Assembly: GCA_963921275.4 (NCBI GenBank)
Contig: OZ001293.3
Coordinates: 1,216,001-1,280,000 of the forward strand
Direction: 5' to 3'
DNA: 64,000 bases
Origin: an uncultured Hormoscilla sp.
GTDB taxonomy: Bacteria; Cyanobacteriota; Cyanobacteriia; Cyanobacteriales; Desertifilaceae
Shown: piece by piece, positions 19,763 to 40,974 of the stretch
Numbering within the stretch: position 1 is the first letter of the stretch
How the letters are laid out: each line of letters begins with the position of its first letter
Notes under the pieces: model-generated
The model's database searches: none
Told to the model about the DNA's origin: nothing
Seen by the model: only the letters and a program-made list of their open reading frames with translations
Program-made: the position numbers and the translations under genes

Positions 19763-19789
19763 AAGATTTATCGGATCTCAAGTGAAAGC

Positions 19790-20703: not shown

Positions 20704-20732
20704 ATCGTTGCTAAGTGGTCAATCTCTTCTAT

Positions 20733-25410: not shown

Positions 25411-25436
25411 GGGTAACTAGATCCCCGATCGCCATT

Positions 25437-25615
25437 CTAACCCTTAAGCTTTTTACCCAACAACTGGTTAGTCAGCTTGGGATCTGCGCGATCGCTAGTT
25501 TTCTTCATCACCTGTCCGACAAAGAAACCTTGCAGCTTAGTTTGACCCAAGGGATACTGTTCGGTGTTCCTTGTATGGGAGCGGAGATCGCTTCATCTAT
25601 TATAGCTTCTAGAGC
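25437..25615 (-). pseudogene. Degenerate duplicate of the gatB 3' end (island boundary)
   Basis: Aligns by eye with 39490-39666, including the stop codon (CTAACCCTTAAG...CACCTGTCCGACAAAGAAACCTTGCAGCTTAGTTT...ATAGCTTC.AGAGC). Confidence 0.92.
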
Positions 25616-25776
25616 GGAGCGTAATTCAAATTGGGGAAAAGCGGAAAAGGGAAAGGACCCCTATGTGGTTCTCTTGAAAGATATGATAGCAATTTAACTT
25701 GCATTGTGATAGACAGGCATTGGCATCTGAGAGCCGGTACTATTATTCAAAAGTGCAGCGTATTGAGAGATACAAT

Positions 25777-26019
25777 CTAATCACTTCTGGAGCGTAGAGC
25801 TTCCTCTAACTTAATTGCCGGCAGAAATATTTTGTATTCCCATCCTTGACCAGGTAGCTGATCTTTTTTAGCGATGTAATCTCGACGTGGTCCACCCTTG
25901 CCTTCAGGGTAGTGTTCTACTGCGTGAAAAACATTAATACGAGCTATACCATATCCGACAATATAGGCTCCAAAAACTCCAATTATAGTCAAAAAGATTT
26001 GATTAGTCTTGAACAACAT
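25777..26019 (-). CDS. Hypothetical 80-aa protein with N-terminal TM helix
   Basis: AGGAG RBS upstream; hydrophobic N-terminus. Confidence 0.6.
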   Translation of the reverse strand: MLFKTNQIFLTIIGVFGAYIVGYGIARINVFHAVEHYPEGKGGPRRDYIAKKDQLPGQGWEYKIFLPAIKLEEALRSRSD

Positions 26020-26032
26020 TAATTCTCCTGTA

Positions 26033-26880
26033 GTAATTCAACGTCAGATTTGCTAAATAAGCTCCACATTTTCAGATATTATCCGTCACGATAACACCTT
26101 TATTTACAAAACTTATACGTTCATATCTGCCCTATAACTCCAGGACTAAGGGGTGTTATGCAGCGTATTTGAATGTTAAGCATGATAAATAGGGTGCTTA
26201 TCCGTCATATCTGCTGGATAACCCCCTTATTGGGGTAGTTATCACTGCTGCGATCGCCGAATCGAATCAGACTGGCTACAAACCACACTACAACTATACA
26301 TGGGTGCATCTCAATTTTTCAATGAGTAATTATACTTAAACACAATAGTATTATTCAAAGCTGAGTATCCAGGGAAGCCAGGACGGTGATCGCACCTGGA
26401 GAGCTTGTGCATGAACAGTATGTTGTTAATGTGGTCCAAATCCCTCTGGCTTTTTTGCCAATCTACATAAACACCCCTTATGTCATGTTATACGGAATTT
26501 TTCCATCTAGCATCCTGATTCTGGAGCTTATACAGATTTCATCATCTAGGATAACACGCTCGTGTGCCTTGGTAGCCTCAATGGATGTTAACTTTTGTTA
26601 ATTTTCCTGAAAGCACCTCCCTCCAAATAGATTCAGCTATTTTACATTTCTTAACATAGGCTGGGCATGTTTGTGCCTACCTACTTATCTTTTACCGATC
26701 GCCCCTCCCCCTTTCTGTTCGGAAATATCGATATCCAGTAGTTATCGGTGTGGAGGCGCAAAAGATGACAACCCGTACAGAAGCGATCTCTGTGTCCCCC
26801 GGGAGCGCTATTCGCACAAAAGGGGGGACACAGCCGCGAGGTACGGGAACCCTCGGTCTGCATGAATAATATGCTGGATC
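26033..26880. repeat. Long inter-cargo repeat, full copy A
   Basis: Collinear with 32147-33064; contains the core shared by 8-9 copies. Confidence 0.9.
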
Positions 26881-26955
26881 ATAACAATTGATGGGATGAA
26901 TATCGATGTAAGGCGATCGCGTTATCCCGAAATTTTGCAGTCGCAAAAGATGAAT

Positions 26956-27044
26956 GTCTAACGGCGATCGCTCCAGCGGCGGCAGATAACCTTGGCATCA
27001 TCACCAAGATATCCCAACCGTCCGCGAAGAGCGCGTTGTTATGC
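26956..27044 (-). other. attC-like integron cassette site
   Basis: Minus strand GCATAAC...imperfect hairpin...GTTAGAC (R' fits GTTRRRY), 89 bp, directly after the PIN gene stop. Confidence 0.7.
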
Positions 27045-27054
27045 TGCGACTGGT

Positions 27055-27458
27055 TTAGGGACTAAAAGGATTGACAATTTTTAGCCTATCAATGTCTGAG
27101 TACCCAAAGTCTTCCGTATAAAGAGTTTCAACATTTGCTTCTAAGCAAGCAGCAACCACCATCGAATCCCAGTGGGACGACTAAAACGGCTCATCAAGTC
27201 ATCAGCACAGTCAATAACAGCCTATGTTGGCAAAGCTGTATACCAAATTTGTTGCAAGTCTCGAATGTACTGATATGCTTGTGCTCTGTCATATCCCAAT
27301 AGCTCAAGTTTGCGGCTTGCCGCCAAATATTCGCAGGCAACCTGCCAAATTGAAACCCCATCTGTCAGACCAGCTACTAAAGAAGCTGCAATTGCCTGCT
27401 TGCCAGGATCGCGCGAATCATTAACGTAAATTAAAATGTTCGTGTCAACGGCGTTCAT
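27055..27458 (-). pseudogene. PIN-domain (VapC-like) toxin
   Basis: MNAVDTNILIY...HWDSMVVAAC...LYTEDF...IVNPF; in-frame TAG at 27222 plus a frameshift. Confidence 0.85.
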
Positions 27459-27687
27459 GTAACATATCTCGTGTAAACCGAGGAGCATTTGAGGGAATAG
27501 GGTTTTGTTGCATTCGTTCAACAAGTCGCCTTAAAAAATCCTGTCTAGCACCAAGATCGGCGATCTTGGGGGGAATGACTTGAGGTGATTTTACAAAAAG
27601 TTCAACTTGAATGCCTTCAGGCAAATCGCCAGCTGTCTGAAGGATGAATGTACCACTATGGTAAATCGCTTTTAAGGCTTGGGGCAT
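27445..27687 (-). CDS. DUF104/AF2212-like antitoxin
   Basis: LKAIYHSGTF...LPEGIQVEL...FTRDMLHER; overlaps the PIN start. Confidence 0.75.
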   Translation of the reverse strand: MPQALKAIYHSGTFILQTAGDLPEGIQVELFVKSPQVIPPKIADLGARQDFLRRLVERMQQNPIPSNAPRFTRDMLHERR

Positions 27688-27892
27688 GGGGAACGCTCCA
27701 TTTTCAGAGTTAAGGGTGAGCCAGTTAGCTGATTACAGTCTAGACCATACAGGGTCAACTCTGTGACAACGATACACGCTCCGATTGAGATAGCGTCTAA
27801 ACGGTCACTAATTCTTTTGGTGGTTGCGATTATTTGGAATTTTTCTGCATAAACACCCTCAATATTATTCTCTACGTAATTTTGACCTTAAG

Positions 27893-28170
27893 CATCCCGA
27901 TCTGGATCTTATACAGATTTCCGGAGCCTAGTATAACTCGCTCGTCTGCCTTGGTAGCCTATCAGGCAAGTTAACAAAAGTTAACTTGCCTGAAAGCCCC
28001 TCCCATAAAGAGATTCAGCTCTTTGACATTTCGCACTGCAGAATGCTCTTTGTGCCTACCTACCTATCTTTTACCGATCGCCCCGACCCCTTTCTGTTCT
28101 CATATATCGATATCCAGTCGGTATCGGTGTGGTGGCGCCAGGGATGGCAACCCGTATAGAAGCGATCGCC
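27893..28170. repeat. Repeat core copy
   Basis: TTATACAGATTT..CTAGTATAAC..TGCCTTGGTAGCC..CCTGAAAGCC..GATTCAGCT..CCTACCTA..CGATCGCCCC..TATCGATATCC. Confidence 0.9.
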
Positions 28171-28371
28171 CTGAAGTCACGGGAAACCTTAGAAGGTATT
28201 CAGCATGTTGGCATCTTTACATTTTCATTTATTTTTTGTCTTCAATATACAGATATAAATCCGACCATAATCTTTCATTACGCTTTTTCACTTTCTCTAT
28301 GAGTTCGCGTTTTGGGCTGTATTTTTTCCCTGGATAACAAACTAATAAATCGTTTTCCTTTATTGCCTAAC
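28170..28371 (-). pseudogene. Duplicated 3' end of the methyltransferase at 36462-37337
   Basis: Matches 36416-36620 (LGNKGKRFI...). Confidence 0.85.
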
Positions 28372-28435
28372 GGCATCATAACAACGGCTAAAGCGTAATT
28401 CAAATTGGGGAAAATCGGAAAGCGGAACTCTTTTG

Positions 28436-28576
28436 GGAGTAGAGACACCGGGGCTAATGATGGGACTGGCAGGTATCGGCTACGGACTGTTGCGACTGGC
28501 GAGTCCCGATCGGGTGCCATCGGTGCTGCTGCTAGCTCCGCCAAAGGAGGAAAACTGCGCTCCATCAGGATTGTAA
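28436..28576 (+). pseudogene. C-terminal fragment of a LanM/LanC-like lanthipeptide synthetase
   Basis: Manual translation GVETPGLMMGLAGIGYGLLRLASPDRVPSVLLLAPP...*. Confidence 0.75.
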
Positions 28577-28732
28577 AGGAAGTTGGATCTTCGGGCGCAA
28601 CCGGAAAATTATCAAAAAAATTTCGCTTTCTCACTTGACAGGAGGTAGTCCAATAGGTTATACTAGAACAACAGTAAGTAATTAGCCCGCATCTGCAGGT
28701 TAAAAGTTATTTATACCAATATAAGAGAGAAA

Positions 28733-29698
28733 GTGACCCAGACTAAATCGCCAAGCAGAAATAGAACACTGAATTGCTCCATGCAAGAGATTTCAGATCT
28801 CAGTATAGAACTTGTGTATCTGATGTCAGATACATCGCTCAAAACAATTAAAAATAAAATTATTCACCAAGATATTTTCGATGCGGCACCCCATTTGCCG
28901 ATCGGGTTTGCGGAGTTGCTAGTGTTGGACCCTCCATACAATCTTTCAAAAAACTACAATGGTTACCTGTTCAAAGAAAAGGAGAAGTCGGAATATCAGG
29001 AGTGGTTTGCGGGAGTGGTTAGGCTTGTCAAACCAATGCTAAAGCCCACAGCAACAGTCTACGTCTGCTCTGATTGGAGAACATCTGTATTGATTGCTCC
29101 GATACTTGAAAAGGAGTTCCGCATCCAAAATCGCATCACCTGGGAAAGAGAAAAAGGGAGAGGCGCAAAATATAACTGGAAAAATAACACTGAAGACATC
29201 TGGTTTTGTACGGTCTCGGAGCAATACCGCTTTAACCTTGATGCGGTCAAGCTCAAGCGAAAGGTTATTGCTCCCTATCGTACAGAAGATGGGCGTCCTA
29301 AAGATTGGCAAGAAGAAGCCGGAGGTAATTTCCGCGTCACCCATCCATCAAATATCTGGACAGATATAACAATTCCCTTTTGGTCAATGCCGGAGAATAC
29401 TAAGCATCCCACCCAAAAACCAGAAAAACTGATTGCTAAGTTAGTGCTGGCAAGTTCTAATCCCGGGGAGATGGTGTTAGATCCATTCTTAGGTAGTGGA
29501 ACTACTGCGGTAGTTGCTAAAAAACTTGGCAGGCGCTTTGTGGGCGTGGAAATTAATCAAGAATACTGCTGCTGGGCTTTGAAGCGCCTTGCAATTGCGG
29601 AAGAGTATCCGTCTATCCAAGGATATGCTGACGGCGTGTTTTGGGAGCGAAACACCCTCAGCGCTCAACCAAAAGACAAGAAGCCGAGTGTAGTGTAG
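28733..29698 (+). CDS. Site-specific amino-DNA methyltransferase, beta class
   Basis: DPPY motif precedes HPTQKP and DPFLGSGTT. Confidence 0.93.
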   Translation: MTQTKSPSRNRTLNCSMQEISDLSIELVYLMSDTSLKTIKNKIIHQDIFDAAPHLPIGFAELLVLDPPYNLSKNYNGYLFKEKEKSEYQEWFAGVVRLVKPMLKPTATVYVCSDWRTSVLIAPILEKEFRIQNRITWEREKGRGAKYNWKNNTEDIWFCTVSEQYRFNLDAVKLKRKVIAPYRTEDGRPKDWQEEAGGNFRVTHPSNIWTDITIPFWSMPENTKHPTQKPEKLIAKLVLASSNPGEMVLDPFLGSGTTAVVAKKLGRRFVGVEINQEYCCWALKRLAIAEEYPSIQGYADGVFWERNTLSAQPKDKKPSVV

Positions 29699-29712
29699 AT
29701 GGAACTGTTTTT

Positions 29713-30297
29713 ATGAAATCCAACTTTTTCTATGGAGGGCACTATCAGGCGGTTGCTGCATCGATCGGAGATTACATTAACTCGGTGCCCGAATTTCTGT
29801 CTGCGCAGACTGTTCGTAGCACAAGGGCCGCAGGTGATGCAATTGAAGGACTCATAGCTGATAAGTTCGATACGTTCCTAGGAGATTGGTGCCAAGAGTA
29901 TTCAGCCAACTTTGCGCGTCGGGCAATGGCAGATGTTGCATTCAAGGATAAGGAAGATTTCTACTGCGTTGTCGATGTCAAGACCCACCGCGAAGATACA
30001 AAGTTTAATATGCCGAATCTTACATCTGTAGAACGGATATCTAGATTCTATGAGGACGATAAGAACATATTCGCGTTGATAATGGTCAAGTACGTGCTGG
30101 AAGGAAATCGAGTTACGGCAACAGAGGTCAGTTTCTGCCCAATTGAGTTTCTCGACTGGGATTGCCTCACGGTAGGTGCGCTTGGATGGGGACAGATTCA
30201 AATTGCGAATTCCAATCGCATCTTGGTGAATCAGGGGTACTCCAGAAAGCAGCGGCTGCGCCTAGTTTTCACACAGATGTGTCAGGCAGTCAGCTAA
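29713..30297 (+). CDS. Putative type II restriction endonuclease (PD-(D/E)XK), probably 3'-truncated
   Basis: GDAIE...MADVAF...VDVKT; directly follows the MTase; C-terminus after GYSRK looks non-native. Confidence 0.65.
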   Translation: MKSNFFYGGHYQAVAASIGDYINSVPEFLSAQTVRSTRAAGDAIEGLIADKFDTFLGDWCQEYSANFARRAMADVAFKDKEDFYCVVDVKTHREDTKFNMPNLTSVERISRFYEDDKNIFALIMVKYVLEGNRVTATEVSFCPIEFLDWDCLTVGALGWGQIQIANSNRILVNQGYSRKQRLRLVFTQMCQAVS

Positions 30298-30382
30298 AGC
30301 TGTTTGGGAATGTCCTAATATACAGACATTTGAAGTCGCTTATCAGCATACATTTGATGGTACTTGGTTATTTCCGCCATGT

Positions 30383-32098
30383 CTATGCTTGTCTCCTATG
30401 AACATAATTACGTATTTTTTGTGTAAAATCCCTGCTTCTAACTGCATCTCTATTCGAGATTGGATTTGCTTTCAAGACTTTTTTAATTATGTTGCAAGAC
30501 TCGATCGCAATAGGTCTCAACTCATCTTTCTTACTTGCAGTGACAATCATTTTCTGAAGATCATAATCCTTAGATTCCTTTGCTATAAGCATACGATAAG
30601 TTAAATATGCCACATGATATTTAAATGGCCTGCATTTAGAAAATATTTCTTGCGCTCTAAATAAGCTTTCTAACCTGTTAATAATCAGTGCCGATAAATA
30701 GTATTTGCGTAATTCATCCGTTGATTTAAATAATCGAGCTTTGTTACTTTCCAATAACTCACCAAAGTACCTATGTGTACTTTGAGGTTGTTCTAAAACT
30801 GTTGATACGTATGCTTTAATTTGGGCAGCTAATGTAATTACCTGCCATGACCGTACCTTTGGATTTCCTAGATATTCTTTAGAACGCCTTTCATAATAAA
30901 TTGGTGGAATAACGCTTCCAGACATTGCCTTGTAAAACTCTTCAAGATTTCTATGAAAAGGCTTTAGAGACTCAAACGCTTCATCTTTTACTTCTGTTTG
31001 ACGATTTGTTGCTCTAATAATCTTATTAGTAACTTCTTGATCGACAGTATCTATAACTTTTAAAACAATATGGGTATCATCTTTGAGGATCTTCCTATTC
31101 TCAAATAACACATGACTTGACTGACAACCGTTGACAATCTGAAAATCAGTCAATTTTAGTTTTGAACCGATTTTCTCAATCTTTTTGGCGATTATTGTTA
31201 TTCCATTATTCAATAATGCCAAAAGTGCCCGGTTTGTAGGAGACCTCAGAGTTTCTTTAATCTCTTTATTAACCTTGTTTGGTCCTTGATAGTCTCTAAC
31301 GTTGTCATAAAAAAGTCCCTTCGCCATTTCCCCATCATTGTTAGTGATTAAATCCAGATATAACTTGACCGGGATACTTCCAATAAAAGACTGTCTCACA
31401 TTCAGCTCATCAGGCATATCTGGCAATGCCACATGATTTTGGAACAGAACCTCCTTAACGGTCTTCCTACTAATTTCACAAAACGTATACTTTAATTTTT
31501 CTGCATCATAGAAATTTACTTTAGGCTCATTTCTGAACAAGCGCTTCTGATTTAATTCCTGCAACTCACGCCTAACTCTCCCAACTATCTGTTTAGGTTC
31601 CTCCCATTTACCCGTTGTTACAAAGAAAAGCTGGAGTTCAGGGATTTGTCCTCCAAAATCAATAGAGTGTTGATAGACTTTTTCTTTGATACCTCTTAAA
31701 TGTTTAATACTCTCATTTTCTGGAATTGATGAACTTTCATCAAAAAAGCTTTTGACTCCAAAAATGAAATTACCTACCTGATCTCCTTTAAACTTTGCTG
31801 ATGATTTTGACTGAATTAACGCAAAAGTTACATCAAGAGTCCCATTCCTTTCTATTAAGAAGTCTATCTCTTCTTCATTTTTAATAATATTGCCATTGAC
31901 AATAATTGCAATGCCATCTAAAGCTAAATCGTCTCTACCACCTGTGGATAAATATTCTAAGTCAATTTCCCTAGGATATAGTTTAGAGACAATGGTAAAG
32001 TTGACAAACCTTTCAAAAACTTTATCTTCATCCATTTGCTCCAATCCATGCTGACTAACAAATGTAGATAAAAAACTCTTTAATATTTCATCTTTCAT
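30383..32098 (-). CDS. AIPR-family (abortive infection phage resistance) protein
   Basis: DLALDG, QSKSS, LFYDNVRDY, LNNGITI, QIVNGCQS, ATNRQT, YYERR; AT-rich. Confidence 0.92.
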   Translation of the reverse strand: MKDEILKSFLSTFVSQHGLEQMDEDKVFERFVNFTIVSKLYPREIDLEYLSTGGRDDLALDGIAIIVNGNIIKNEEEIDFLIERNGTLDVTFALIQSKSSAKFKGDQVGNFIFGVKSFFDESSSIPENESIKHLRGIKEKVYQHSIDFGGQIPELQLFFVTTGKWEEPKQIVGRVRRELQELNQKRLFRNEPKVNFYDAEKLKYTFCEISRKTVKEVLFQNHVALPDMPDELNVRQSFIGSIPVKLYLDLITNNDGEMAKGLFYDNVRDYQGPNKVNKEIKETLRSPTNRALLALLNNGITIIAKKIEKIGSKLKLTDFQIVNGCQSSHVLFENRKILKDDTHIVLKVIDTVDQEVTNKIIRATNRQTEVKDEAFESLKPFHRNLEEFYKAMSGSVIPPIYYERRSKEYLGNPKVRSWQVITLAAQIKAYVSTVLEQPQSTHRYFGELLESNKARLFKSTDELRKYYLSALIINRLESLFRAQEIFSKCRPFKYHVAYLTYRMLIAKESKDYDLQKMIVTASKKDELRPIAIESCNIIKKVLKANPISNRDAVRSRDFTQKIRNYVHRRQA

Positions 32099-32146
32099 AA
32101 CAATATCTTCTTATCCTCTGATGGCATCTCTTCTGATTTATAACTG

Positions 32147-33064
32147 GTAATTCAACGTCAAATTTGCTATATAAGCTCCACATTTTCGGATCTTATCAGT
32201 CACTTTTGCCCGATCGCACCCTTATTTACAAAACTTATACGTTCATATTTGCCATATAACTCCAGGACTAAGGGGTGTTATGCAGCGTATTTGAATGTTA
32301 AGCATGATACATATAGGGTGCTTATCCGTCAGAACTGCTGGATAACCCCCTTATTTGGGTAGTTATCACTACTGCGATCGCCGAATCAAATCCGACTGAC
32401 CACGACTTTTCCTACTGTACAGGGTGCATCTCAATTTTGCCAAGAGTAATTCTACCTAATTCCGAAAATTTTGACCGAGAAAATTTCCTTTTGCTGTCAA
32501 GCAACTGATCGCCGAATCAAATCCGACTGGCTACAAACCACACTACAACTATACATGGGTGCATCTCTATTGTCAATGAGTCATTCTACTTAAACACAAG
32601 AGTATTATTCAAAGCTGAGTATCCCGGGAAGCCAGGACGGCGATTGCACCTGGATAGCTTGTGCATAAACAGTATGCCGCTGAGGTGGGATAAATCCCTC
32701 TGGCTTTTTTGCCAATCTACATAAACACCCTCAATGTCATGTTATACAGAATTTTTCCATCTAGCATCCTGATTCGGGAGCTTATACAGATTTCATCACC
32801 TAGTCTAACACGCTCCTGTGCCTGGGTAACAGAAATTATGTTAAATTTTATTAATTTGCCTGAAAGCCTCTCCCAGAAATAGATTCAGCTATTAGACATT
32901 TTTTAACATCGGCTGGGCCTCTTTGTGCCTACCTACCTATCTTTTACCGATCGCCCCTCCCCCTTTCTGTTCTAATATATCGATATCCCGTGGTGGCGCA
33001 AGGGATGCAACCCGTACAGATATGTACGGGAACCACCGGTCTGCACGAATAATATGCTGGGATC
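32147..33064. repeat. Long inter-cargo repeat, full copy B
   Basis: Collinear with 26033-26880, with an internal partial duplication (~32375-32570). Confidence 0.9.
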
Positions 33065-33107
33065 GTGGGGGCGATCGCCCTTAAATTTTTACAGAGTTAA
33101 TTCGGCA

Positions 33108-33197
33108 TCATAACAACGGCTAAATTGAGAGGCGGATATTATTCGGGAGCATCTCCACCAATATCTCGCGCCCGTCCGCTCCAACCTCTTGTTATAC
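33108..33197 (-). other. attC-like site
   Basis: Minus strand GTATAACAAGAGGTTGGAGCGGAC...CCGCCTCTCAATTTAGCCGTTGTTATGA, overlapping the end of the small partner gene. Confidence 0.6.
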
Positions 33198-33348
33198 CGG
33201 GCTTTCGAGATAAATTCACAACTTCCTTGCCGCTTGCCGCTTGCTGCTTTTGTAAATCAGCAAATATGGCTTTCAAATCGTGATTGAATGAACGAGAGTA
33301 CTCTTCACGGATTCTGTGAATTTCTTCGACAATCTCATCCCGATACAT
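33139..33348 (-). CDS. Small partner protein of the PIN gene (antitoxin-like)
   Basis: MYRDEIVEEIHRIREEY...DLKAIFADL. Confidence 0.7.
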   Translation of the reverse strand: MYRDEIVEEIHRIREEYSRSFNHDLKAIFADLQKQQAASGKEVVNLSRKPGITRGWSGRARDIGGDAPE

Positions 33349-33350
33349 AA

Positions 33351-33824
33351 TCAACCTCCAAGCATTTCGTATGGGGTACAAAGAATAGGCAACTCATATC
33401 CAAAATCAAGACTAATTTCTGCTAATTTTCTCTGAATTTGAGCATTTGCAATATGCTTGCAGTTCCAGGTCAGCAGGTAATCCATGCCATGAACAGTTGC
33501 GGCTGCGATATGAATAGCATCAACATCAGCTTTGGCAGGCAGATTACTGCGTCCCAGCAACTGCTCTGCTAGATCGATCGCAGATTGGTTCAAATCGAGT
33601 AACGCCAGATCGCGAATGATTGCGAGTCGTTGAGATGCTATTTGAGCATCTCCTTGTGACGTTTCTTTGACGACGGCTTGCGAAGAGTAAAGTTGGAAGT
33701 AACCACGGCGCGTATCCCACCACTCCCTCGTAATCTCTATATTGGCAGCCACGACAATATCTCTGCTGGATCGAGCAGTAAGATAGCCTAAGATACTCGT
33801 TTCAATGTAGACAGTTTCACGCAT
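33351..33824 (-). CDS. PIN-domain (VapC-like) protein
   Basis: VYIETSILGYL, DAIHIAAA, YLLTWNCKHIAN. Confidence 0.88.
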   Translation of the reverse strand: MRETVYIETSILGYLTARSSRDIVVAANIEITREWWDTRRGYFQLYSSQAVVKETSQGDAQIASQRLAIIRDLALLDLNQSAIDLAEQLLGRSNLPAKADVDAIHIAAATVHGMDYLLTWNCKHIANAQIQRKLAEISLDFGYELPILCTPYEMLGG

Positions 33825-33988
33825 GCAGGAAATGGGCAGTAACTTTTTCTATTTTAATCCACACCCCCGCTCGCTGCTCGTCCGTTTCAGAGGCTATGCC
33901 TAGTATAACACGCGAGCGTGCAAAAGAAGCTGCAATTTCCTGCTTGCCAGGATCTCGCGAATCATTAACGTCAATTAAAATGTTCGTG

Positions 33989-34231
33989 TCAACTGCGTTC
34001 ATGCAACATATCTCGCGTAAACAGAGGAGCATTTGAGGGAATAGGGTTTTGTTGCATTCGTTCGACAAGTCGCCTTAAAAAATCCTGTCTAGCACCAAGA
34101 TCGGCGATCTTGGGGGGAATGACTTGAGGTGATTTTACAAAAAGTTCAACTTGAATGCCTTCAGGCAAATCGCCAGCTGTCTGAAGGATGAATGTACCAC
34201 TATGGTAAATCGCTTTTAAGGCTTGGGGCAT
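33989..34231 (-). CDS. DUF104-like antitoxin, second copy; its PIN partner (33925-34002) is truncated
   Basis: Near-identical to 27445-27687. Confidence 0.75.
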   Translation of the reverse strand: MPQALKAIYHSGTFILQTAGDLPEGIQVELFVKSPQVIPPKIADLGARQDFLRRLVERMQQNPIPSNAPLFTRDMLHERS

Positions 34232-34367
34232 GGGGAACGCTCCATTTTCAGAGTTAAGGACTGATGGTTGCACCGCCTTCTCGGCGAAGAATTATCGGCA
34301 CCCGTGGCAGGCGATCGAACTCATTCACCAGAAGGATCGCAGGTAGAATAGTGAAAACGCACGATCG

Positions 34368-34577
34368 TCAAGTCTGTTTTGCTTCCGAAGCCGCCTGCAT
34401 CAACACGGCACCAGCACCAAAGCAGTTGTCAGGAGTCGGCAAGTCATAGGTTTTAAATGGTTCTAGGGGTGAAATATCCTCTGCTGCTTCTAGATCCTCT
34501 GCCAGAATCCGAATCAGCTTCAATTTTTCTATAATAGAGAGTTTGCGGATAGTTGGAAGAACCTCAGTCAAAGTCAT
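34368..34577 (-). CDS. Small antitoxin-like hypothetical protein
   Basis: MTLTEVLPTIRKLSIIEKLKLIRILAEDL; GGAG RBS. Confidence 0.6.
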   Translation of the reverse strand: MTLTEVLPTIRKLSIIEKLKLIRILAEDLEAAEDISPLEPFKTYDLPTPDNCFGAGAVLMQAASEAKQT

Positions 34578-34641
34578 AGTTACGTCTCCCAGGAATATCT
34601 TCATGCATTAATTTTAATCGCCAGACGTAATTTTTCCATAA

Positions 34642-34860
34642 TGCATCCCGATAACTTGGGCTCTTATACAGATTTCATCACCTAGGATAACACGCTCATG
34701 TGCCTTGGTAGCCTATAAGGCAAGTAAACTTTTTTTAAGTTTCCCTGAAAGCCTCTCCCTCCAAAGAGATTCAGCTATTTTACATTGCTTAACATCTGAA
34801 GAATGCTCTTTGTGCCTACGTACCTATTTTGTACCTATCGCCCTGACCCCTTTTCGTTTC
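34642..34860. repeat. Repeat core copy
   Basis: Same core motifs as 27893-28170. Confidence 0.88.
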
Positions 34861-35217
34861 TTACACTGCATAGCCAGAGTATTTGCGGATAAAAGGGGGT
34901 TGAAAACCGATGACAATATCGCTTTTCTGCACTCCCATTTCTACTAAATATTGACCGATATCTAGTTCTGTATTGTTGGCTTGAATCCAGACTTTTTCAT
35001 CTTTTATATCTAAATGAATTGAGCAACCATATATCCGCTCTTGCTTGTCCCAACCTACGGCAACTACTTGATAATGATCCTGTTCGTTATCAAAGATTGT
35101 TTGCACCTCAATGTCACCGTGAGAAGGTTTGTAGGCACCGTATTCTGCGAGCATTTTTCTGACTATAGCACGATATAGTTCGCTTTTTGTTTCTGTTTTT
35201 TGTTCTAGATAATCCAT
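34861..35217 (-). CDS. xisI: XisI-family protein
   Basis: FDNEQDHYQV..GW..RIYGCSIHLDIKDEKVWIQ..TE..DIVIGFQPP. Confidence 0.92.
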   Translation of the reverse strand: MDYLEQKTETKSELYRAIVRKMLAEYGAYKPSHGDIEVQTIFDNEQDHYQVVAVGWDKQERIYGCSIHLDIKDEKVWIQANNTELDIGQYLVEMGVQKSDIVIGFQPPFIRKYSGYAV

Positions 35218-35613
35218 TTTACGATCGCCTCATTTTCTGTATCGTAGATTAGCAATTTAATTTGATATTCATCAATAATTAACCGAGGAAACTCTTTTTG
35301 CAGAAAGGTATTATAGCTAATAGCTGGGACAGCAATAAATAGCTTTCGCTCCGGTTCTTTTAATTTTAATGCAGTTCGATAGTTGATAAATTGCCCGATT
35401 GCTAGATGAAAATCAGCAACGCTAGACGGGTTGAGAAAGCTTTTAATTTCGACAGCAATCTTTTCCCCATCGCGTTCGGCAGCAAGTAATTTTTCTGCGC
35501 TCGATAAAAAAATCAACTCCACCCACTTTAAGAAAAAGCGGATCCTCGGTGATTTTCCAACCTTTGGCAATCAGGGCTGTTTTAAAAACATCATGAAACA
35601 AGTCTTTTGCCAA
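35205..35613 (-). pseudogene. xisH: XisH-family protein, frameshifted
   Basis: AKDLFHD..GWKITEDP and AEKLLAAE..IAVEIKSF..GQFINY lie in different frames. Confidence 0.88.
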
Positions 35614-35625
35614 TATATCCACCAC

Positions 35626-35722
35626 TATACAGATTTCATCCCCTAGCATAACACGCTCCTGTGCCTTGGTAGCCGAAATTATGTTAAGTTTTGTTAAATT
35701 TATGAAACCCTCTCCCAGAAAT
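35626..35722. repeat. Repeat core, partial copy
   Basis: TATACAGATTTCATC..CTAGCATAACACGCTC..TGCCTTGGTAGCC. Confidence 0.85.
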
Positions 35723-35750
35723 CGATAACTACGAAACTCTTGCTTAAAGA

Positions 35751-35972
35751 TTAGACAGATCCTGTTCTAGAAGAGATTGAAGCAAGCTGGATTTCCAGCC
35801 AGTCGGGCGGGCTGAAAATACAGTTTCTCACTATTGTTGGGGCTTCTGATGCCCCCAGTTCATCGCACACTGCTTGGGGAACAAACACGCGATCGAATAA
35901 TTGTGGTAATAGTTCAAATTGGTCAATCAGTATCAAATAACGCAAAGGTGACGTATTGGAGATAACAGTCAT
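35751..35972 (-). pseudogene. DUF3368 PIN-like toxin, truncated
   Basis: VISNTSPLRYL..LLPQLF..VPQAVCDEL; only 73 aa. Confidence 0.8.
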
Positions 35973-36232
35973 TTTCCCCTCACTTTGCGAATATTCTGGA
36001 CATCTTGCTCTAGATCTGCTAGGGTGTAGTTTAGATAAGCGCCTTCTTTCTTGAGAAACCCATCAACTTCATAGCGGCCCAAGCCAAGTATCCGCCCCAC
36101 CTCAGCATGAGTAATTGCCTCATCTCGATAGGCTTCGGCAGCGGTAATTTCCAACACCCGCTGTTTCAGATTACCCCATTTCTCTTCCATATAATTGGCG
36201 ATTTTGTCAGGTATTTCAATCGCGATTTTCAT
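35969..36232 (-). CDS. UPF0175-family antitoxin
   Basis: AEAYR..IT..EVGRILGL.RYEVDGFLK..Y..DLEQD; coupled to the DUF3368 gene. Confidence 0.82.
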   Translation of the reverse strand: MKIAIEIPDKIANYMEEKWGNLKQRVLEITAAEAYRDEAITHAEVGRILGLGRYEVDGFLKKEGAYLNYTLADLEQDVQNIRKVRGK

Positions 36233-36297
36233 GGCATAACCTCCTAAACGCTCTGCTTGAGTATAGCAAATCTTGACCAGATTTTTCCTCGTCAGTT

Positions 36298-36416
36298 ACC
36301 TACCTACCTATCTTGTACCGATCGCCCCGACCCCTTGGGTGTTCTCATATATCGATATCCAGTCTGTATCGGTGTGGTGGCGCCAGGGATGGCAACCGGT
36401 ACAGAAGCGATCGCCC
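36298..36416. repeat. Repeat core, right half
   Basis: CCTACCTACCTATCTT..CGATCGCCCCGACC..TATCGATATCCAG..GGTGGCGCCAGGGATGGCAAC. Confidence 0.85.
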
Positions 36417-36461
36417 TGAAGTCACAAGAAACCTGAGAAGGTATTCAGCATGTTGGCATCT

Positions 36462-37337
36462 TTACATTTTCATTGACTTTTTGTCTTCAATATACAGATC
36501 GAAATCGGACCATAACCTTTCATTACGCTTTTTCACCTTCTCTATGAGTTCGCCTTTTGGGCTGTATTTTTTCCCTGGATAACAAGCGAAACCAATAAAT
36601 CGTTTTCCTTTATTGCCTAAGCCATTAACACCCCATTCCGCGAGCATCTGCTCGTGACTCATATCCAGTTGACTGAGATGCTCAATAAGTCGATCGATAT
36701 CATATCGGTAAGTTGTAAACTGAACCTCAAATTGGATTTCTTCTGAATTCTCATACCTCCATTGCAGAATGTCTATGTTCCCTTCTATAGATTTCTTCCA
36801 TTGGTAACCGTCAAGAACACTTGGATCCGGCAACCAGTCCGCTACCAGTGAGTTTTTGGCATCAATCCAATCCGTGGGTCTCGAAGCATACAAAAAAGCT
36901 GTATGGTCAATGACAATCAATCCGTCTTCATTTAAATGCTCTTTGGCATTTTTCAAAGCTGCAAATCTATCTTTATCCGTACTTAAATGTTTTAATACGG
37001 ACAATGCAAACACAATTAAATCATATTTTTGATTGAGTTTAAATGAACACATATCTGTATTCACAAATTCAACAATTGCGTTCTCTACCTTATGTTCCGC
37101 ATAATTTTTTCTTCCTTGAGATATCATTTCATCACTTAAATCAATTCCAGTTATCTCCTTTGCTTCTTTCATAAATATCCAGAACAATCGACCCATTCCG
37201 CAACCCAGCTCTAATACAGATTTTGGCTTCAATATTTCAACCAAATCCTCATAGAGAGAAAAATCCATTTTGAATTCATTCATAATCTCATCATAGAAAT
37301 CCCTCGATTTGTTATACTCCGATTTGCTTAATTTCAT
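36462..37337 (-). CDS. Class I SAM-dependent methyltransferase
   Basis: VLELGCGMGR, GIDLSDEM, YDLIV, HLNEDGLIVID. Confidence 0.88.
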   Translation of the reverse strand: MKLSKSEYNKSRDFYDEIMNEFKMDFSLYEDLVEILKPKSVLELGCGMGRLFWIFMKEAKEITGIDLSDEMISQGRKNYAEHKVENAIVEFVNTDMCSFKLNQKYDLIVFALSVLKHLSTDKDRFAALKNAKEHLNEDGLIVIDHTAFLYASRPTDWIDAKNSLVADWLPDPSVLDGYQWKKSIEGNIDILQWRYENSEEIQFEVQFTTYRYDIDRLIEHLSQLDMSHEQMLAEWGVNGLGNKGKRFIGFACYPGKKYSPKGELIEKVKKRNERLWSDFDLYIEDKKSMKM

Positions 37338-37479
37338 TTTCTTCTCTGATTTGCCTAATTTCATTTGTTGTCAATAACGACCTTGATGCTAGCGGTGCCG
37401 TGCTGGGACGATCGAACCCGTGCTTTATACCCCACATCCGCCTCCACTGAATGGTTCGGCACAGCAAATAGCTGCCCAA

Positions 37480-38115
37480 GGGCCACCAAGCGTCACAAGC
37501 CGAAAATACTGCCCTGGCCTCTTTGCCTCAAATGCCGCACCAGCCTATTGCCGGTGGAGATTTGTTGCATGAACAGTATGCCGCCGAGGTGGTCCAAATC
37601 GCTCTGGACATATTTCCGGCTCCTAGCATAACACGCTCGCGTGCCAAGGTAGCCTATAAAGCAAGTTAATTTTTGTTAACTTGCCTGAAAGCCTCTCCCA
37701 TAAAGAGATTCAGCTCTTTGAAATTTCGCACGGCTGTGCCTCTTTGTGCCTACCTGCTTATCTTGTACCGATCGCCCCGACCCCTTTCTATTCTCATATA
37801 TCGATATCCAGTCTGTCTCGGTGTGGTGGATATCGCTCTGCCCGCCAGTCGTTCTCCTCATGGCTACCCAAGAGCCACCAAGCGTCAAAAGCCGAAATTG
37901 CCGTATTGGTGGAGTTGCCTCAAATGCCGCACCTGCCTATTGCCGGTGGATATCTTGTGCATGAACCCGATCTGGATCTTATACAGATTTTATTGCCTAG
38001 TATAACACGCTCGTGTGCCAATGTAGCCTATAAGGCAAGTTAACTTTTGTTAAGTTTCCCTGAAAGCCTCTCCCTCCAAAGAGATTCAGCTATTTTACAT
38101 TGCTTAACATCTGAG
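37480..38115. repeat. Two tandem repeat copies, each preceded by a degenerate gene 3' end
   Basis: Cores at ~37612-37830 and ~37966-38115; upstream ...LPQMPH.PIAGG.L.HE... peptide appears twice. Confidence 0.85.
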
Positions 38116-38196
38116 GAACCTGGTCAGGGATCTCGTCCTCCCTACCCTGGGAGAAGTGGTCAAAACCAGTCGATCGTTCTATGGGCCCTCTCAGTC

Positions 38197-38365
38197 GCCA
38201 GCAATAGCTTATTGTAAGCCAGCAATAGCTTATTGTAAGCCAGCAATAGCTTATTGTAAGCCAATCAATAGCTTATTGTAAGCCAGCAATAGCTTATTGT
38301 AAGCCAGCAATAGCTTATTGTAAGCCAGCAATAGCTTATTGTAAGCCAGCAATAGCTTATTGTAA
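38197..38365. repeat. Tandem repeat, 8 x 21 bp (GCCAGCAATAGCTTATTGTAA)
   Basis: Counted directly; unit 4 is a 22-bp variant; internal IR CAATA-gct-TATTG; no spacers. Confidence 0.95.
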
Positions 38366-38571
38366 AGCTGCCTGTTGAAATAGCTAATGACAAGAAAAAC
38401 CCCGTTCCTCCGTCACTGGGAAAAGTTCCCTGGCGGGGCCACCCCGAAGCGATACCGTCGGAGGGTTCTCCCTAACCAACAGGAGGCTCTGCCTCTGTTG
38501 ACGGTTCCCAGGCTGAGCCTAGGAACCAGGAAAATTTCTAGCCCGCGCAGGCGGGCTTTGTTTGTGTAGCC

Positions 38572-39442
38572 GGATGGGGTCGAGCCGGGAATCGCTTCCC
38601 GACCCTCCCTTGAGGAACCGGACTTGCGATTTTCACCGCATCCGGCTACTGGGTACTAGGCCCTTTTCATAGGTAGACTTAATAGGAATTACTTCCGTTA
38701 GCCCTTGCCGCCTGTCTTTTCTTCCCTTTCCTGGTTTAGCGAGTGGTTGTTCTGATAACCGTTAGTATCACCATTTTCAAGTCAGTTTTACCAGTTATCC
38801 ATACCTTATCCTCCACTTGCGTTTCGGATTAGTTCCGTGGCTTTTTAGGATTACTCATTCCAGCAGCTTCCTAGTATCACCGACCCACGTCAGCGCTGGC
38901 TACCCAGCATCATCTACATTACTGTAGATGTTATCCCAGGAATTACCCCGGGCATTCGCTTCTTGGGCCATCCCTCCCCCCGTGGCTTGCGCTTAACATC
39001 TAACTTGTCCTGATGGACAGCACACGAGAGGTTACTTCGTTCCCTAACAACATTTCGCGATACCTTTAGGTCCACACTATACCCCGGGAGCTATTTGAGT
39101 ACTATATTAGCCAGAGTCTAAAACTAATACTAGCTACCATTTCCTTTTTAGGCCAGCGCATATAGCCTTATTTCGCTGGTTCCTTATAACGAGGCTTGCA
39201 CATGTTTGCCTGCTCTAACCTTGGATATCTTTCCTAGCGGCGTCACCGGCTTAGGCTGCCAGTTATCCTACATTTGAGTCCTCGCTTAGCACCACGATGA
39301 TGTCGCTTCGTAGCACCGAGGACCGGTGTCACCCCCGTACCTGGGGGGAGGGGAATTTAACCCCCATGCGGTCAGAGTTCCCGGCTAATGAAACCGGGCT
39401 AGCGTTCCGTGTTTGACCACGTTAGGCTAGAACGAATCGCAC
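38572..39442 (-). mobile_element. Second ORF-less group II intron, inserted in a REP-like repeat
   Basis: Minus strand starts GTGCGATTCGTTC; domain V AGCCGGATGCGGTGAAAATCGCAAGTCCGGTTC; domain VI ...CTCGACCCCATCC. Flanks rejoin to the repeat seen intact at 62590-62845. Confidence 0.9.
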
Positions 39443-39489: not shown

Positions 39490-40974
39490 CTAACCCTTAA
39501 GTTTTTTACCCAACAACTGATTAGTCAGCTTGGGATCGGCACGACCGCTAGTTTTCTTCATCACCTGTCCGACAAAGAAACCTTGCAGCTTAGTTTTACC
39601 CTGGCGATACTGTTCCAGTTCCTTGGGATGAGCGGCAATCACTTCATCTATAATAGCTTCCAGAGCACTCTGGTCGGAAATTTGGATTAAACCCTTACTT
39701 TCCACCAGCTCCTTCGGCGACCCCCCTTTTGATAAGATGTCGGGCAAGATGTCTTTGGCAATTTTGCTGCTGATAGTTTTATCTTCAATCAGCTTTATCA
39801 TCTCCGCTAGGGCCTCGGGGGTAATGGCAATGTCGGTAATGCCGAGTTTGTTAGCATTCAAATAGGCCGCAATGTCGCCCATCACCCAGTTCGCTGCTTG
39901 CTTGGGATTAGCATTGGCGGCGACGGCGGCTTCAAAATATTCCGCCACCGCCCGATCGTCCGTCAGCACCCGGGCGTCGTAAGCAGAAAGTTCCAGTTGA
40001 CTTTCATAGCGATCGCGTTTTTGGGCGGGCAGTTCCGGCAATTGGGATTTCCATGCTGCCAGTTGTTCTTTCGATACTTCAATGGGGGGCAAATCCGGTT
40101 CCGGGAAGTAGCGATAGTCGCTAGATCCTTCCTTGCTGCGCATGCTAATAGTGCGCCCCGAACCTTCTTCCCAGAGGCGAGTCTCTTGGACGATTTTCTC
40201 CCCTGCTTCTATCGCTACAATTTGCCGCTCAATTTCATAGTCGATCGCCCGTCCGATGGCATTAAAGGAGTTCATATTTTTAATTTCCACCTTCGTGCCG
40301 AATTCCTCTTGACCCACAGGACGAACGGAGATATTCACATCGCAGCGGAGGGAACCTTCCTGCATATTACCATCGCTAACCCCCAGGTAACGCATAATCC
40401 GACGCAGTTCTTGGGCGTACTCAGCAGCTTCCTGTCCCGATCGCATATCCGGTTCCGAGACTATTTCTATGAGGGCCACTCCAGCGCGGTTATAGTCTAC
40501 CAGAGAATAGGTCGAACCCGAAAGGCGATCGCTCCCGCCATGAACCAACTTCCCCGCATCTTCTTCCATATGCAGGCGAGTAATGCCAATCTTTTTGCGA
40601 ACTGGGTTGCCATCAGCATCCGTCAGTTCAATTTCCAGCCAACCATGTTCCGCGATCGGCAGATCGTACTGAGAAATCTGGTAATTTTTCGGCAGATCTG
40701 GATAGAAATATTGCTTGCGATCGAACTTGCTGTATTTAGCAATCTCGCAATTGAGCGCCAAACCCGCCTTCACCCCATATTCCAGAACCTTTTCGTTCAG
40801 TACGGGAAGGACTCCGGGCATTCCCATACAGATAGGGTCAATATTGGTGTTAGGAGTAGCCCCAAATTCCGTCGAAGAATTGGAAAAAATCTTGGTTTTG
40901 GTACTCAGTTGACAGTGAGTTTCCAAACCAATAATCCCTTCGTACTGAGTTTTAACCGGTGCAGCAGTAGTCAT
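39490..40974 (-). CDS. gatB: Asp-tRNA(Asn)/Glu-tRNA(Gln) amidotransferase subunit B
   Basis: [40 protein letters not shown]. Confidence 0.98.

Follow-up and report, generated by a model that had tools for sequence, protein, structure and literature searches.

How does an array of defence and addiction genes arise, and how is it reshuffled, if a non-coding unit recurs between its genes and no integrase lies nearby? This question is raised by a 64,000-nt stretch of DNA from an uncultured Hormoscilla (the whole of it is called the window here), in which eight copies and a ~30-nt stub of such a unit are interleaved with cargo at 26033-38124. A first-pass annotation had suggested an integron-like or otherwise undescribed gene-capture array. 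The borders of the array are formed by the following elements.

39490..40974, minus strand: intact gatB (Pfam GatB_N and GatB_Yqey)
38566..39442, minus strand: ORF-less group II intron directly after the gatB stop codon (Rfam RF00029 at 38574-38650)
38197..38365, no strand: tandem repeat of 21 bp in 8 copies (TRF), separating the gatB flank from the first repeat unit
25437..25615, minus strand: orphan gatB tail (last 180 bp), left boundary of the island (self-blastn)

The last ~180 bp of gatB (39490-39666) are the right-hand copy of a direct repeat bounding the island and show 88% identity to 25437-25615 in a self-blastn of the whole window. Since the array is flanked by intact gatB and an orphan 180-bp tail, it is an old, presumably integrated island. 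In the identity matrix of three genomes the orphan tails are 94-98% alike and the intact tails 95-100%, compared to 86-89% between the groups; orphan and intact tails group separately in all three. The duplication of the gatB tail predates the split of these genomes. The gatB flank repeat is interrupted by a gap because the group II intron, whose 5' GTGCG is read at ~39442, inserted there. It is missing from the equivalent site in the related loci L001 and L004 and is outside the array mechanism. Moreover, in L001 the flank is joined straight to a unit core without the 21-bp tandem repeat. No recombinase, integrase, transposase or serine recombinase is found among the 73 window ORFs (26 + 47) scanned against Pfam, in agreement with the first-pass annotation, and neither a founding integrase nor a fragment of one is seen if the 40 ORFs of the comparison loci are included. 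The only mobile-element gene among the latter encodes an IS66 transposase inside dcm.

The repeat copies were located by self-blastn of the whole window and with nhmmer, using a profile of 17 copies.

26033..26960, minus strand: repeat unit c1, long copy (blastn; nhmmer part 26398-26758), ending 14 bp before ORF80
27843-28137, minus strand: repeat unit c2 (self-blastn/nhmmer)
32147..33103, minus strand: repeat unit c3, long copy (blastn; nhmmer part 32651-32997)
33890..33920, minus strand: core stub of ~30 nt, fused to a truncated PIN-like gene (exact GCGTGTTATACTAG at 33900-33913)
34620..34878, minus strand: repeat unit c4 (nhmmer E=1.1e-69), starting at the xisI stop codon and ending 6 bp short of the following ORF
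35626..35726, minus strand: repeat unit c5, truncated at either end (nhmmer E=7.8e-31)
36297 to about 36382-36412, minus strand: repeat unit c6, 5' part only (nhmmer E=2.1e-21; blastn)
37471..37829, minus strand: repeat unit c7, internally deleted (nhmmer E=2.2e-83)
37861..38124, minus strand: repeat unit c8, 5'-truncated and with an internal deletion (nhmmer E=1.3e-61)

The eight copies, the stub and the two long versions read by the first-pass annotation are recovered, all in the same orientation. A unit consists of a ~100 nt 5' extension and a ~360 nt core, followed by one of two 3' extensions, either a short one running into the next unit or one of ~360 nt with consensus-like promoters facing the cargo. 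In c3 the promoter module of the latter is duplicated. Unit length ranges from 280 to 930 nt, and the ends are ragged, often cutting into cargo genes. The unit has neither coding capacity nor structure. No reading frame stays open across copies, codon periodicity is absent (p=0.35), and searches among 1.84 billion representatives return spurious-ORF hits only. Likewise there is no Rfam match and no covariation, and the consensus of 16 copies holds 8 pairs, none of them compensatory. Terminal inverted repeats are lacking as well, and the unit is no known IS, MITE or RNA family; no match to an IS end or MITE, which the first-pass annotation had named as the finding that would speak against it, was obtained. 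Outside the arrays no copy is detected by the profile in the 64 kb and ~62 kb of loci, and the strict core pattern occurs at two loci only in the long-read GM7CHS1pb assembly.

Along the unit, conservation falls into blocks. The promoter-like module is retained as well: TTGAAT-18-TATAAT and TTGAAA-18-TATAGT are kept in c1, c3 and L003a and point at the cargo, in line with the promoters presumed earlier. Judged from these motifs the long extension may act as a promoter; consensus matches in the region are not far above shuffles (38 vs 29.6, sd 5.1). The core motif GCGTGTTAT.CTAG holds up with 8 matches at ≤ 2 mismatches vs 1.04 expected, as does TTATCC-N12-GGATAA, present in both long copies. 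The proposed core feature TTATAC-N15-16-GTATAA is not conserved, being found in 2/8 copies only. Both long copies indeed end in GTTGAATTAC, but its fit to GTTRRRY is uninformative, as this motif occurs at chance level (117 found vs 118.03 expected).

For most copies the nearest neighbour switches between segments, and L003b and L004b, although at different loci, reach a similarity of 0.99. The copies are thus mosaics. Such a pattern suggests that units recombine with or convert one another, and it fits the shuffling by homologous recombination that had been raised as a caveat. Unit c5 matches copies in L003 and L001 at 97-98% identity, and c7, which is orthologous to unit d of L004, has this unit as nearest neighbour in 3/5 segments tested (111-330).

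The cargo comprises toxin-antitoxin (TA), restriction-modification (R-M), AbiU/AIPR, XisHI and methyltransferase modules.

36462..37364, minus strand: SAM-dependent methyltransferase (Pfam Methyltransf_25 E=2.1e-16)
35969-36232, minus strand: UPF0175 antitoxin-like gene (Pfam UPF0175 E=2.7e-16)
35751-35972, minus strand: N-terminal fragment of a DUF3368/PDC-S70 toxin-like gene (PADLOC PDC-S70 positions 1-65 of 161 only)
35205-35570, minus strand: xisH, N-terminal third absent (Pfam XisH profile 41-134 of 134)
34861-35217, minus strand: xisI (Pfam XisI E=2.4e-43)
34368-34604, minus strand: hypothetical ORF, 78 aa
33989-34273, minus strand: AF2212/DUF104-like ORF (weak match)
within 33817..34604, minus strand: PIN-like fragment cut at ~33923 (PIN-like N-terminus by eye)
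33139..33824, minus strand: 157-aa PIN-like ORF (Pfam PIN E=0.0035, under the curated cut-off) and 80-aa partner ORF
30383..32098, minus strand: AIPR/AbiU abortive-infection protein (Pfam AIPR E=1.5e-40; PADLOC AbiU E=1.9e-136)
28733-29698, plus strand: type II N6/N4 DNA methyltransferase
in 28733..30297, plus strand: 218-aa unassigned partner ORF of this methyltransferase, putative endonuclease
27843..28383, minus strand: 3'-end remnant of a methyltransferase (~28218-28383), then c2 (blastn)
27445-27687, minus strand: AF2212/DUF104-like ORF (Pfam AF2212-like E=0.0021, under the curated cut-off)
27222-27524, minus strand: 100-aa PIN-like fragment (PIN-like N-terminus by eye)
25777..26019, minus strand: ORF80, 80-aa hypothetical protein, hydrophobic N-terminus by eye

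All cargo except the R-M pair lies on the minus strand, as noted before. Regarding the identities assigned in the first pass, AIPR/AbiU, the type II methyltransferase, XisI, UPF0175 and the SAM methyltransferase are firm, XisH and DUF3368 are broken genes, and the DUF104 and PIN assignments are weak. The two DUF104-like ORFs match AF2212-like at E=0.002-0.003, under the curated cut-off, and their PIN-like partners have no Pfam match. ORF80 has no family match. Parts of the cargo are duplicated: the AF2212/DUF104-like ORF and PIN-like fragment within 33817..34604 are a 97.6% copy of 27379-27715, and 28055-28383, including the methyltransferase remnant, corresponds to 36299-36630 (91.6%, blastn).

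At the gatB locus of two other Hormoscilla genomes both cargo and order differ, so that the array, cassette-like as the first-pass annotation had proposed, varies in content while its position on the chromosome is fixed. L001 and L004 share both flanks with the window at 93-96% and the R-M pair at 96-98%, carry Z1 and Dcm in place of AIPR and lack 2.77 kb present in the window. L001 has DUF433-DUF5615; L004 holds xisI at another position and a methyltransferase segment 93.7% identical to that of the window. One of these two genomes has a second array behind carB, with a 445 bp carB duplicate (94%); there, a biosynthetic cluster too is preceded by the repeat. The comparison covers three genomes of one genus, in which many shared unit boundaries are orthologous and do not count as independent events. 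Cargo genes cut at unit junctions are xisH (at its 5' end), two PIN genes and DUF3368 (at their 3' ends) and a methyltransferase, now a remnant; one truncation used a 4-nt microhomology. The break-point of the replacement between AIPR and ORF131 lies within the restriction-partner gene.

Most of the reshuffling looks like ordinary recombination between repeats. We therefore favour, with a probability of roughly 55%, an integrase-less hypervariable accessory island at the gatB 3' tail, shuffled mainly by homologous and illegitimate recombination between promoter-bearing units. The founding integration would have left a second copy of the final ~180 bp of gatB. Each module is preceded, on the same strand, by the lineage-specific non-coding unit, a putative portable promoter or leader that may at the same time serve as homology patch, such that unit-flanked modules could be recombined in, moved or lost via the general recombination machinery of the host. 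Turnover, as seen in the comparison, comprises recombination or gene conversion between units, including exchange between the gatB and carB loci of one genome, imprecise deletions cutting units and cargo genes alike, and one gain or loss of the 2.77-kb multi-gene segment exactly between two 23-36-bp sites. Internal partial gatB copies, the expected trace of simple serial integration at this gene, are not found between the modules by self-blastn of the whole window. General recombination moreover accounts neither for the duplication of the 23-36-bp site around the 2.77-kb segment nor for TTGAATTAC being shared between the long-repeat ends and this unrelated 36-bp site. The sites in question are listed below.

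32147-32187, minus strand: L-site, end of c3, ending in ...GACGTTGAATTAC
26033-26073, minus strand: L-site, end of c1, ending in ...GACGTTGAATTAC
28392..28427, minus strand: cargo-end site R2, TTCC..TTTCCG.TTTTCCCCAAT-TTGAATTAC-GCT
25618..25653, minus strand: cargo-end site R1, with the orphan gatB tail starting ~5 nt away

They give a single hint that insertion may use a specific site. The strongest competitor, which we nevertheless regard as unlikely, is a cassette-capture system of an undescribed type that is still active and depends on a recombinase encoded elsewhere. Here the long-repeat 3' end (...GACG-TTGAATTAC) would be the docking site and ...TTTTCCCCAAT-TTGAATTAC-GCT its cassette-borne partner, and strand exchange in the shared 9-mer would insert or excise single- or multi-gene segments. 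The 9-mer, part of the decamer at the long-repeat ends, has four exact copies in 64 kb (0.68 expected), always on the cargo strand and inside the array, and the homology of the two long repeats halts exactly at it. Two segments lie between direct copies, namely ORF80 (26041->25621), exactly between one L-site and one R-site, and AIPR plus R-M (32155->28395). R2 and R1 match at 33/36 positions; their exact 23-mer (2 in the window vs 0 expected) is identical in 4/4 occurrences in three genomes, in four different flank combinations as for a portable site. Both copies bracket the 2.77-kb segment, and L001 and L004 represent the exact recombinant of the R2 left and the R1 right flank. However, only this one inter-strain difference maps to the site, and 23-36 bp of identity could also allow a rare homologous crossover. 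L-sites are absent from L001-L004 and R-sites from L003, and window and loci encode no linked recombinase. The methyltransferase remnant begins ~10-25 nt beyond the R-site, a junction that is not base-precise, and most other junctions are ragged. In addition, the R-sites lack dyad symmetry by eye, and their single strands form no hairpin, folding no better than shuffles (both sites, both strands, z -0.02 to 1.40).

Somewhat less probable still is a selfish or neutral repeat, either long-period and satellite-like or derived from decayed, accreted transposon ends (e.g. Tn7-like), that merely traps genes without any role for the cargo. Truncation of many copies would suit it, as would tandem units without cargo: c8 has none behind it and leads via its 3' extension directly into c7, and one and the same ~80-nt string links the units of this pair, of its counterparts in L001, L003 and L004 and of a run of three in L002 (5 places). 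A repeat of this kind is difficult to reconcile with units always co-directional with the cargo, restricted to the arrays within the 64 kb and ~62 kb of loci, lacking terminal inverted repeats and retaining a promoter-like module in block-wise conservation; there is no transposase besides the unrelated IS66, and a 180-bp duplication of gatB is not expected from transposon insertion. A sedentary chromosomal integron or CALIN (attC cluster without integrase) with the repeats as attC, suggested by the TA-rich, co-oriented array without integrase and by GTTGAAT at both long-repeat ends, is contradicted by GTTRRRY at chance level, R-sites reading TTTGAAT, no attC-like hairpin or consensus structure, units far longer than attC sites (55-141 nt), and multi-gene, truncated cassettes with ragged junctions and promoter-like sequence in front, and is thus highly improbable.

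The nearest known systems resemble the array in part. Integrons and CALINs share the long, strain-variable TA-rich array with an interleaved repeated element; in contrast, the repeats described here exceed attC sites several-fold in length, are placed 5' of the cargo and come without intI. In pdif (Xer) modules of Acinetobacter plasmids, cargo, often TA or resistance genes, lies between short sites served by a host recombinase encoded elsewhere, a logic matching the cassette-capture reading of the TTGAATTAC sites. The pdif sites are 28 bp long, have a 6-bp spacer separating two arms and alternate in orientation, whereas the R-site shows by eye only a 4-bp self-complementary AATT either side of TG, and its copies are direct. 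As in defence islands and integration hot-spots, R-M, Abi (AbiU/AIPR; Z1 and Dcm in relatives) and TA genes cluster between conserved genes; unlike in their usual description, a dedicated repeat family is interleaved in uniform orientation and also fronts the carB biosynthetic cluster. Genomic islands can also start at the 3' end of a conserved gene and grow through repeated integration, as in tandem accretion of integrative elements and in the tycheposon-seeded islands of Prochlorococcus. In the latter, older elements are displaced towards the interior by successive integrations, and partial tRNAs and integrase fragments stay behind (10.1101/2020.12.28.424599). The accessory island favoured here likewise sits behind a housekeeping gene bounded by its partial copy, varies among close relatives between fixed flanks, contains decayed remnants and has a second island behind another housekeeping gene. 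It differs in lacking integrases and their fragments among the ORFs scanned, in being seeded by the tail of a protein gene instead of a tRNA and in being separated by an unrelated ~460-bp non-coding unit before each module instead of partial seed copies. If this reading is true, the DNA behind an essential gene would be a safe place at which the island maintains defence and addiction genes in a changing assortment.

In the first-pass annotation this region was described as a cassette-like array of defence and toxin-antitoxin cargo alternating with a long non-coding repeat. Self-comparison of the 64-kb window and a profile search from 17 aligned copies confirm this array and extend it. A single repeat family is present at 26033-38124 only, located between the intact gatB gene and an orphan copy of its last 180 bp.

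Borders, repeat copies (self-comparison and profile) and cargo-end sites of the window array
25437-25615: orphan copy of the gatB tail (gatB')
25618-25653: cargo-end site R1
26398-26758, minus strand: repeat copy c1 (long copy, 26033-26960, minus strand)
27843-28137, minus strand: repeat copy c2
28392-28427: cargo-end site R2
32651-32997, minus strand: repeat copy c3 (long copy, 32147-33103, minus strand)
about 33890-33920: stub of the repeat, ~30 nt
34620-34878, minus strand: repeat copy c4
35626-35726, minus strand: repeat copy c5
36297-36382, minus strand: repeat copy c6
37471-37829, minus strand: repeat copy c7
37861-38124, minus strand: repeat copy c8
39490-40974, minus strand: intact gatB

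The two gatB 3' ends form a border direct repeat (25437-25615 versus 39490-39666, 88%), likewise found in two other Hormoscilla genomes (loci L001 and L004), and the island is present in 3/3 Hormoscilla genomes compared. Orphan tails are 94-98% alike and intact tails 95-100%, with 86-89% between the groups. As orphans and intact tails group separately, the duplication predates the split of the three genomes. At its borders the island carries an 80-aa hypothetical ORF and repeat units; a search for an integrase domain there was negative, and self-blastn revealed one orphan fragment only, with no internal gatB copies between the modules.

The immediate surroundings contain several further elements. 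On the intact-gatB side the extra ~900 bp are due to an ORF-less group II intron (38566-39442, minus strand; Rfam RF00029 at 38574-38650), which directly follows the gatB stop codon and is absent at the equivalent site in L001 and L004. A second copy of it, 75-85% identical, lies in opposite orientation at 686-1598 (plus strand). A 21-bp unit (GCCAGCAATAGCTTATTGTAA) in eight tandem copies (38197-38365) separates the gatB flank from the first repeat unit; it is missing from L001. An Rfam CRISPR-DR28 match at 38539-38562 was discarded, being a single terminator-like GC hairpin (AGCCCGCGCAGGCGGGCT) and no CRISPR array. Downstream of the orphan and intact gatB tails (25356-25412 and 38474-38530) we found a 57-bp palindrome-rich element (CCTGGTTCCTAGGCTC.GCCTGGGAACC...), probably a small dispersed repeat; short elements resembling it recur in L001 and L004. 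L001 alone shows a ~160-bp palindromic insertion downstream of gatB (about 12440-12640), which looks like a MITE. Left of the orphan tail, family-less ORFs stand in a row (22573-25243, minus strand; one weak SQHop_cyclase_C hit) that looks like the fragments of a single, disrupted large gene. The 78 bp at 24829-24906 are 98.7% identical to positions 1051-1128 of L003, the carB-locus array.

The repeat copies range from 280 to 930 nt. At five places in four genomes the 3' extension of one tandem unit runs seamlessly into the next core via the same ~80-nt string, which sets the basic unit at about 460 bp. Alignments show block-wise conservation with three short palindromes (ATATCGATAT, AAGTTAAC-N4-GTTAACTT and ACACG-N2-CGTGT). 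The long extension carries TTGAAT-18-TATAAT and TTGAAA-18-TATAGT, both pointing to the cargo and conserved in c1, c3 and the long carB-locus unit (L003a); the module is present twice in c3 and L003a. These consensus matches represent predicted promoters.

Cargo of the window array
AIPR/AbiU gene, between repeat copies
type II methyltransferase and a partner ORF without assigned family (R-M), plus strand, the sole plus-strand cargo
SAM methyltransferase (MT)
UPF0175 gene and the first 40% of a DUF3368/PDC-S70 gene
xisI and an xisH without its N-terminal third
two AF2212/DUF104-like ORFs, 97.6% identical, with weak family support (E about 0.002, below the curated cut-off), each paired with a PIN-like fragment without Pfam hit
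157-aa PIN ORF (weak score) and its 80-aa partner
two small hypothetical ORFs

Elsewhere, the window consists of ordinary cyanobacterial chromosome (psbA, mreBCD, argJ, purB, recR). A large glycosyltransferase gene has its 3' end duplicated there as a 625-bp, 99% direct repeat (11860-12484 and 14079-14701), near an RT-domain fragment at 11182-11607. A methyltransferase-like gene (18568-19497) is followed by a fragmented, 72% identical paralogue (19761-20736). Moreover, a two-gene module (211-aa ORF and 155-aa aspartyl-protease-like ORF) is duplicated in tandem at 82% (44144-45424 and 45316-46602), the first gene being split in the second copy.

Relatives were retrieved by scanning the genome collection with the positions invariant in 7/7 window copies. 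This strict core pattern occurs at four loci in three genomes, all Hormoscilla MAGs. L001 and L004 represent the chromosomal locus of the window, with both flanks, orphan tail and gatB at 93-96%. Cargo content and order differ between them and the window at this same locus, as the earlier gene-capture proposal would have it.

Module order from gatB, minus strand (MT', remnant of MT)
Window: c8, c7, MT, c6, UPF0175-DUF3368', c5, xisH'-xisI, c4, hyp78, DUF104-PIN', stub, PIN157-80aa, c3-long, AIPR, R-M, R-site, MT'-c2, DUF104-PIN', c1-long, ORF80, R-site, gatB'
L004: xisI, xisI, unit d, MT, unit c, UPF0175-DUF3368 (frameshifted), units b and a, dcm with IS66 transposase inside, Z1, stub, ORF131, R-M, R-site, gatB'
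L001: DUF433-DUF5615, xisI, units b and a, dcm, Z1, stub, ORF131, R-M, R-site, gatB'

Modules common to the loci are 92.7-98.2% identical. Since this is about the divergence of the flanks, the shared modules look inherited and not newly imported, with an altered arrangement. Genes of the xisH/xisI type recur in 3/3 gatB arrays. The dcm gene of L004 is broken by the IS66-family transposase at 7767-8951. L002 is a 1.7-kb contig with three units in a row. L003, the second locus of the L004 genome, has two units (one long) directly behind carB and a 445-bp, 94% carB duplicate 11.6 kb away, at 49-493; carB itself is split into two ORFs there. A short ORF (read by eye) follows the long unit, and after it comes a cluster that includes two radical-SAM/SPASM genes; hence the cargo is not limited to defence genes. 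Within L003 1-11200 this cluster comprises an asparagine-synthase-like gene, the two radical-SAM/SPASM genes, a seryl-tRNA-synthetase paralogue, TauD/PhyH dioxygenases and an aldo-keto reductase; it may be of the RiPP type.

Most of the evidence speaks for turnover of the array by general and imprecise recombination. The units are mosaics, the nearest neighbour switching between segments for most copies. For example, c4 and c8 are 0.99 alike in one 80-nt segment while the best match of c4 elsewhere is 0.72-0.87, and carB-locus and gatB-locus units of one genome are 0.99 alike. In the window, L001 and locus comparisons, junctions often fall inside genes or units: they cut the 5' end of xisH, the 3' end of DUF3368, two PIN-like 3' ends and the stub, and a remnant of the MT 3' end lies upstream of c2. 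The truncated unit b of L001 has a GCTA microhomology at its junction. The difference between AIPR and ORF131 has its break-points in the restriction-partner gene and in the 5' extension of the unit. A cut of MT at a pseudo-core (GATATGAGTCACG versus AATTTGAATTACG, 9/13) was rejected, as the next 20-30 nt are non-homologous. Mosaic units and ragged junctions fit the caveat, made at first pass, of shuffling by homologous recombination, but the placement of the 9-mer TTGAATTAC is the sole feature that general recombination leaves unexplained.

The window contains four exact copies of TTGAATTAC against an expectation of 0.68, and all four lie in the array on the cargo strand. Two of them form the last bases of the long repeats (L-sites) and mark the exact point where homology between the long repeats stops. 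The remaining two belong to a 36-bp sequence placed after cargo (R-sites; 33/36 identical, exact 23-mer), which apart from the 9-mer is unrelated to the long repeat. Direct copies of TTGAATTAC flank two segments, ORF80 by itself and AIPR with R-M. In L001 and in L004 the 23-mer is present once, and the sequence reads like the left side of R2 fused to the right side of R1; hence, between its two site copies, the window has 2.77 kb (ORF80, c1, DUF104-PIN', c2, MT') that both relatives lack. The difference is a single event, of the kind expected from site-specific exchange or else from a rare crossover over 23-36 bp. The loci of the relatives gave no L-sites, and L003 also lacks the R-site. Origin of the R-site as a diverged gatB piece was rejected (by eye, 9/24 matches in the 24 nt upstream of the orphan).

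On the site-specific side, Hormoscilla could harbour an undescribed gene-capture platform, to which we assign a probability of roughly one in five. Arrays would be seeded behind essential genes (gatB, carB) and built of the ~460-bp promoter-bearing unit, the long form of which would terminate in a docking site. Cassettes would bring a 23-36-bp partner site that has only the 9-bp core TTGAATTAC in common with the docking site. An unlinked recombinase would insert or excise single- or multi-gene cassettes at TTGAATTAC; a candidate is an XisF-type enzyme aided by the xisH/xisI of the three gatB arrays. A truly new cassette system acting in trans is accordingly graded as unlikely, and we class the array as a hypervariable island at the tail of a gene, lacking an integrase and interleaved with a private repeat that carries predicted promoters.

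Among known systems, integrase-type genomic islands in gene 3' ends share the border direct repeat (gatB here, the carB duplicate in L003), but they have an integrase at one border and none is found here. Tandem accretion at one att site predicts internal seed copies; the window array has none inside. The pdif modules offer a further comparison. Xer/dif-type sites comprise 28 bp with two recombinase-binding arms and a central spacer; judged by eye, the R-site has no dyad symmetry beyond AATT-TG-AATT.

None of the 73 window ORFs scanned is an integrase, transposase or serine recombinase, in line with the initial impression of an array lacking an integrase, and no recombinase family was found in 40 scanned ORFs of L001 (8), L004 (15) and L003 (17); integrons, in contrast, carry intI beside the array (optional for CALIN). 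Integron attC sites, roughly 55-141 nt in length, are imperfect palindromes whose single strands fold. Such folding is absent here: with either strand of the R-sites folded as ssDNA, z ranges from -0.02 to 1.40, and the best L-site values of the two copies are -1.80 and -0.69. GTTRRRY, found at every cassette boundary of integrons, is present at the two L-sites, whereas the two R-sites read TTTGAAT, and its total in the window is at chance (117 found, 118.03 expected). Because of this, of junction sites folding no better than shuffles and of the unit length, the units are not attC. From the original proposal of a gene-capture array, a repeat-organised, variable locus without linked recombinase is supported and the integron-like specifics are not. 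The comparison with known systems draws on the tycheposon preprint (10.1101/2020.12.28.424599) and, for xisH/xisI, on PMC4874684.

A known IS end or MITE, an alternative named at first pass, is rejected for the unit: it has no terminal inverted repeats of MITE type, the profile search found no copies beyond the arrays in the window or the retrieved loci, and the strict pattern is confined to the few loci described. Moreover, searching plasmids and phages with the long repeat (blastn) gave no match. The Hormoscilla genome/mobile-DNA and cyanobacterial integron/cassette literature contains no such repeat or array among the matches listed. A known structured RNA family is rejected, since no unit matched Rfam at gathering score or E<=1 (the sole scoring elements being the group II intron and the lone hairpin), RNAalifold gave no covariation on 5 or on 16 copies (unfavourable terms of +0.96 and +0.03), and the 16 copies share no consensus structure. 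Finally, the unit is not coding, as six-frame stop analysis shows no frame open throughout, substitutions lack 3-base periodicity (codon-periodicity permutation, p=0.35) and the six phmmer hits of its plus-strand reading against 1.84 billion representatives are four short ORFs translated from other repeat copies and two unrelated low-complexity proteins.

If the TTGAATTAC sites are real recombination sites used in trans, they would define a system of cassette exchange that is new and separate from the integron family, an integron-like function from unrelated parts in a phylum with poorly known mobile-element biology, and a possible tool for site-directed insertion in cyanobacteria. If the conservative reading of an integrase-less island holds, the locus is a clear, well-bounded case of a symbiotic cyanobacterium keeping its fast-changing defence and addiction stock in one fixed place behind an essential gene, with a private repeat that would be promoter and recombination handle at once. 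This would aid the annotation of such regions and our understanding of integrase-free island turnover.
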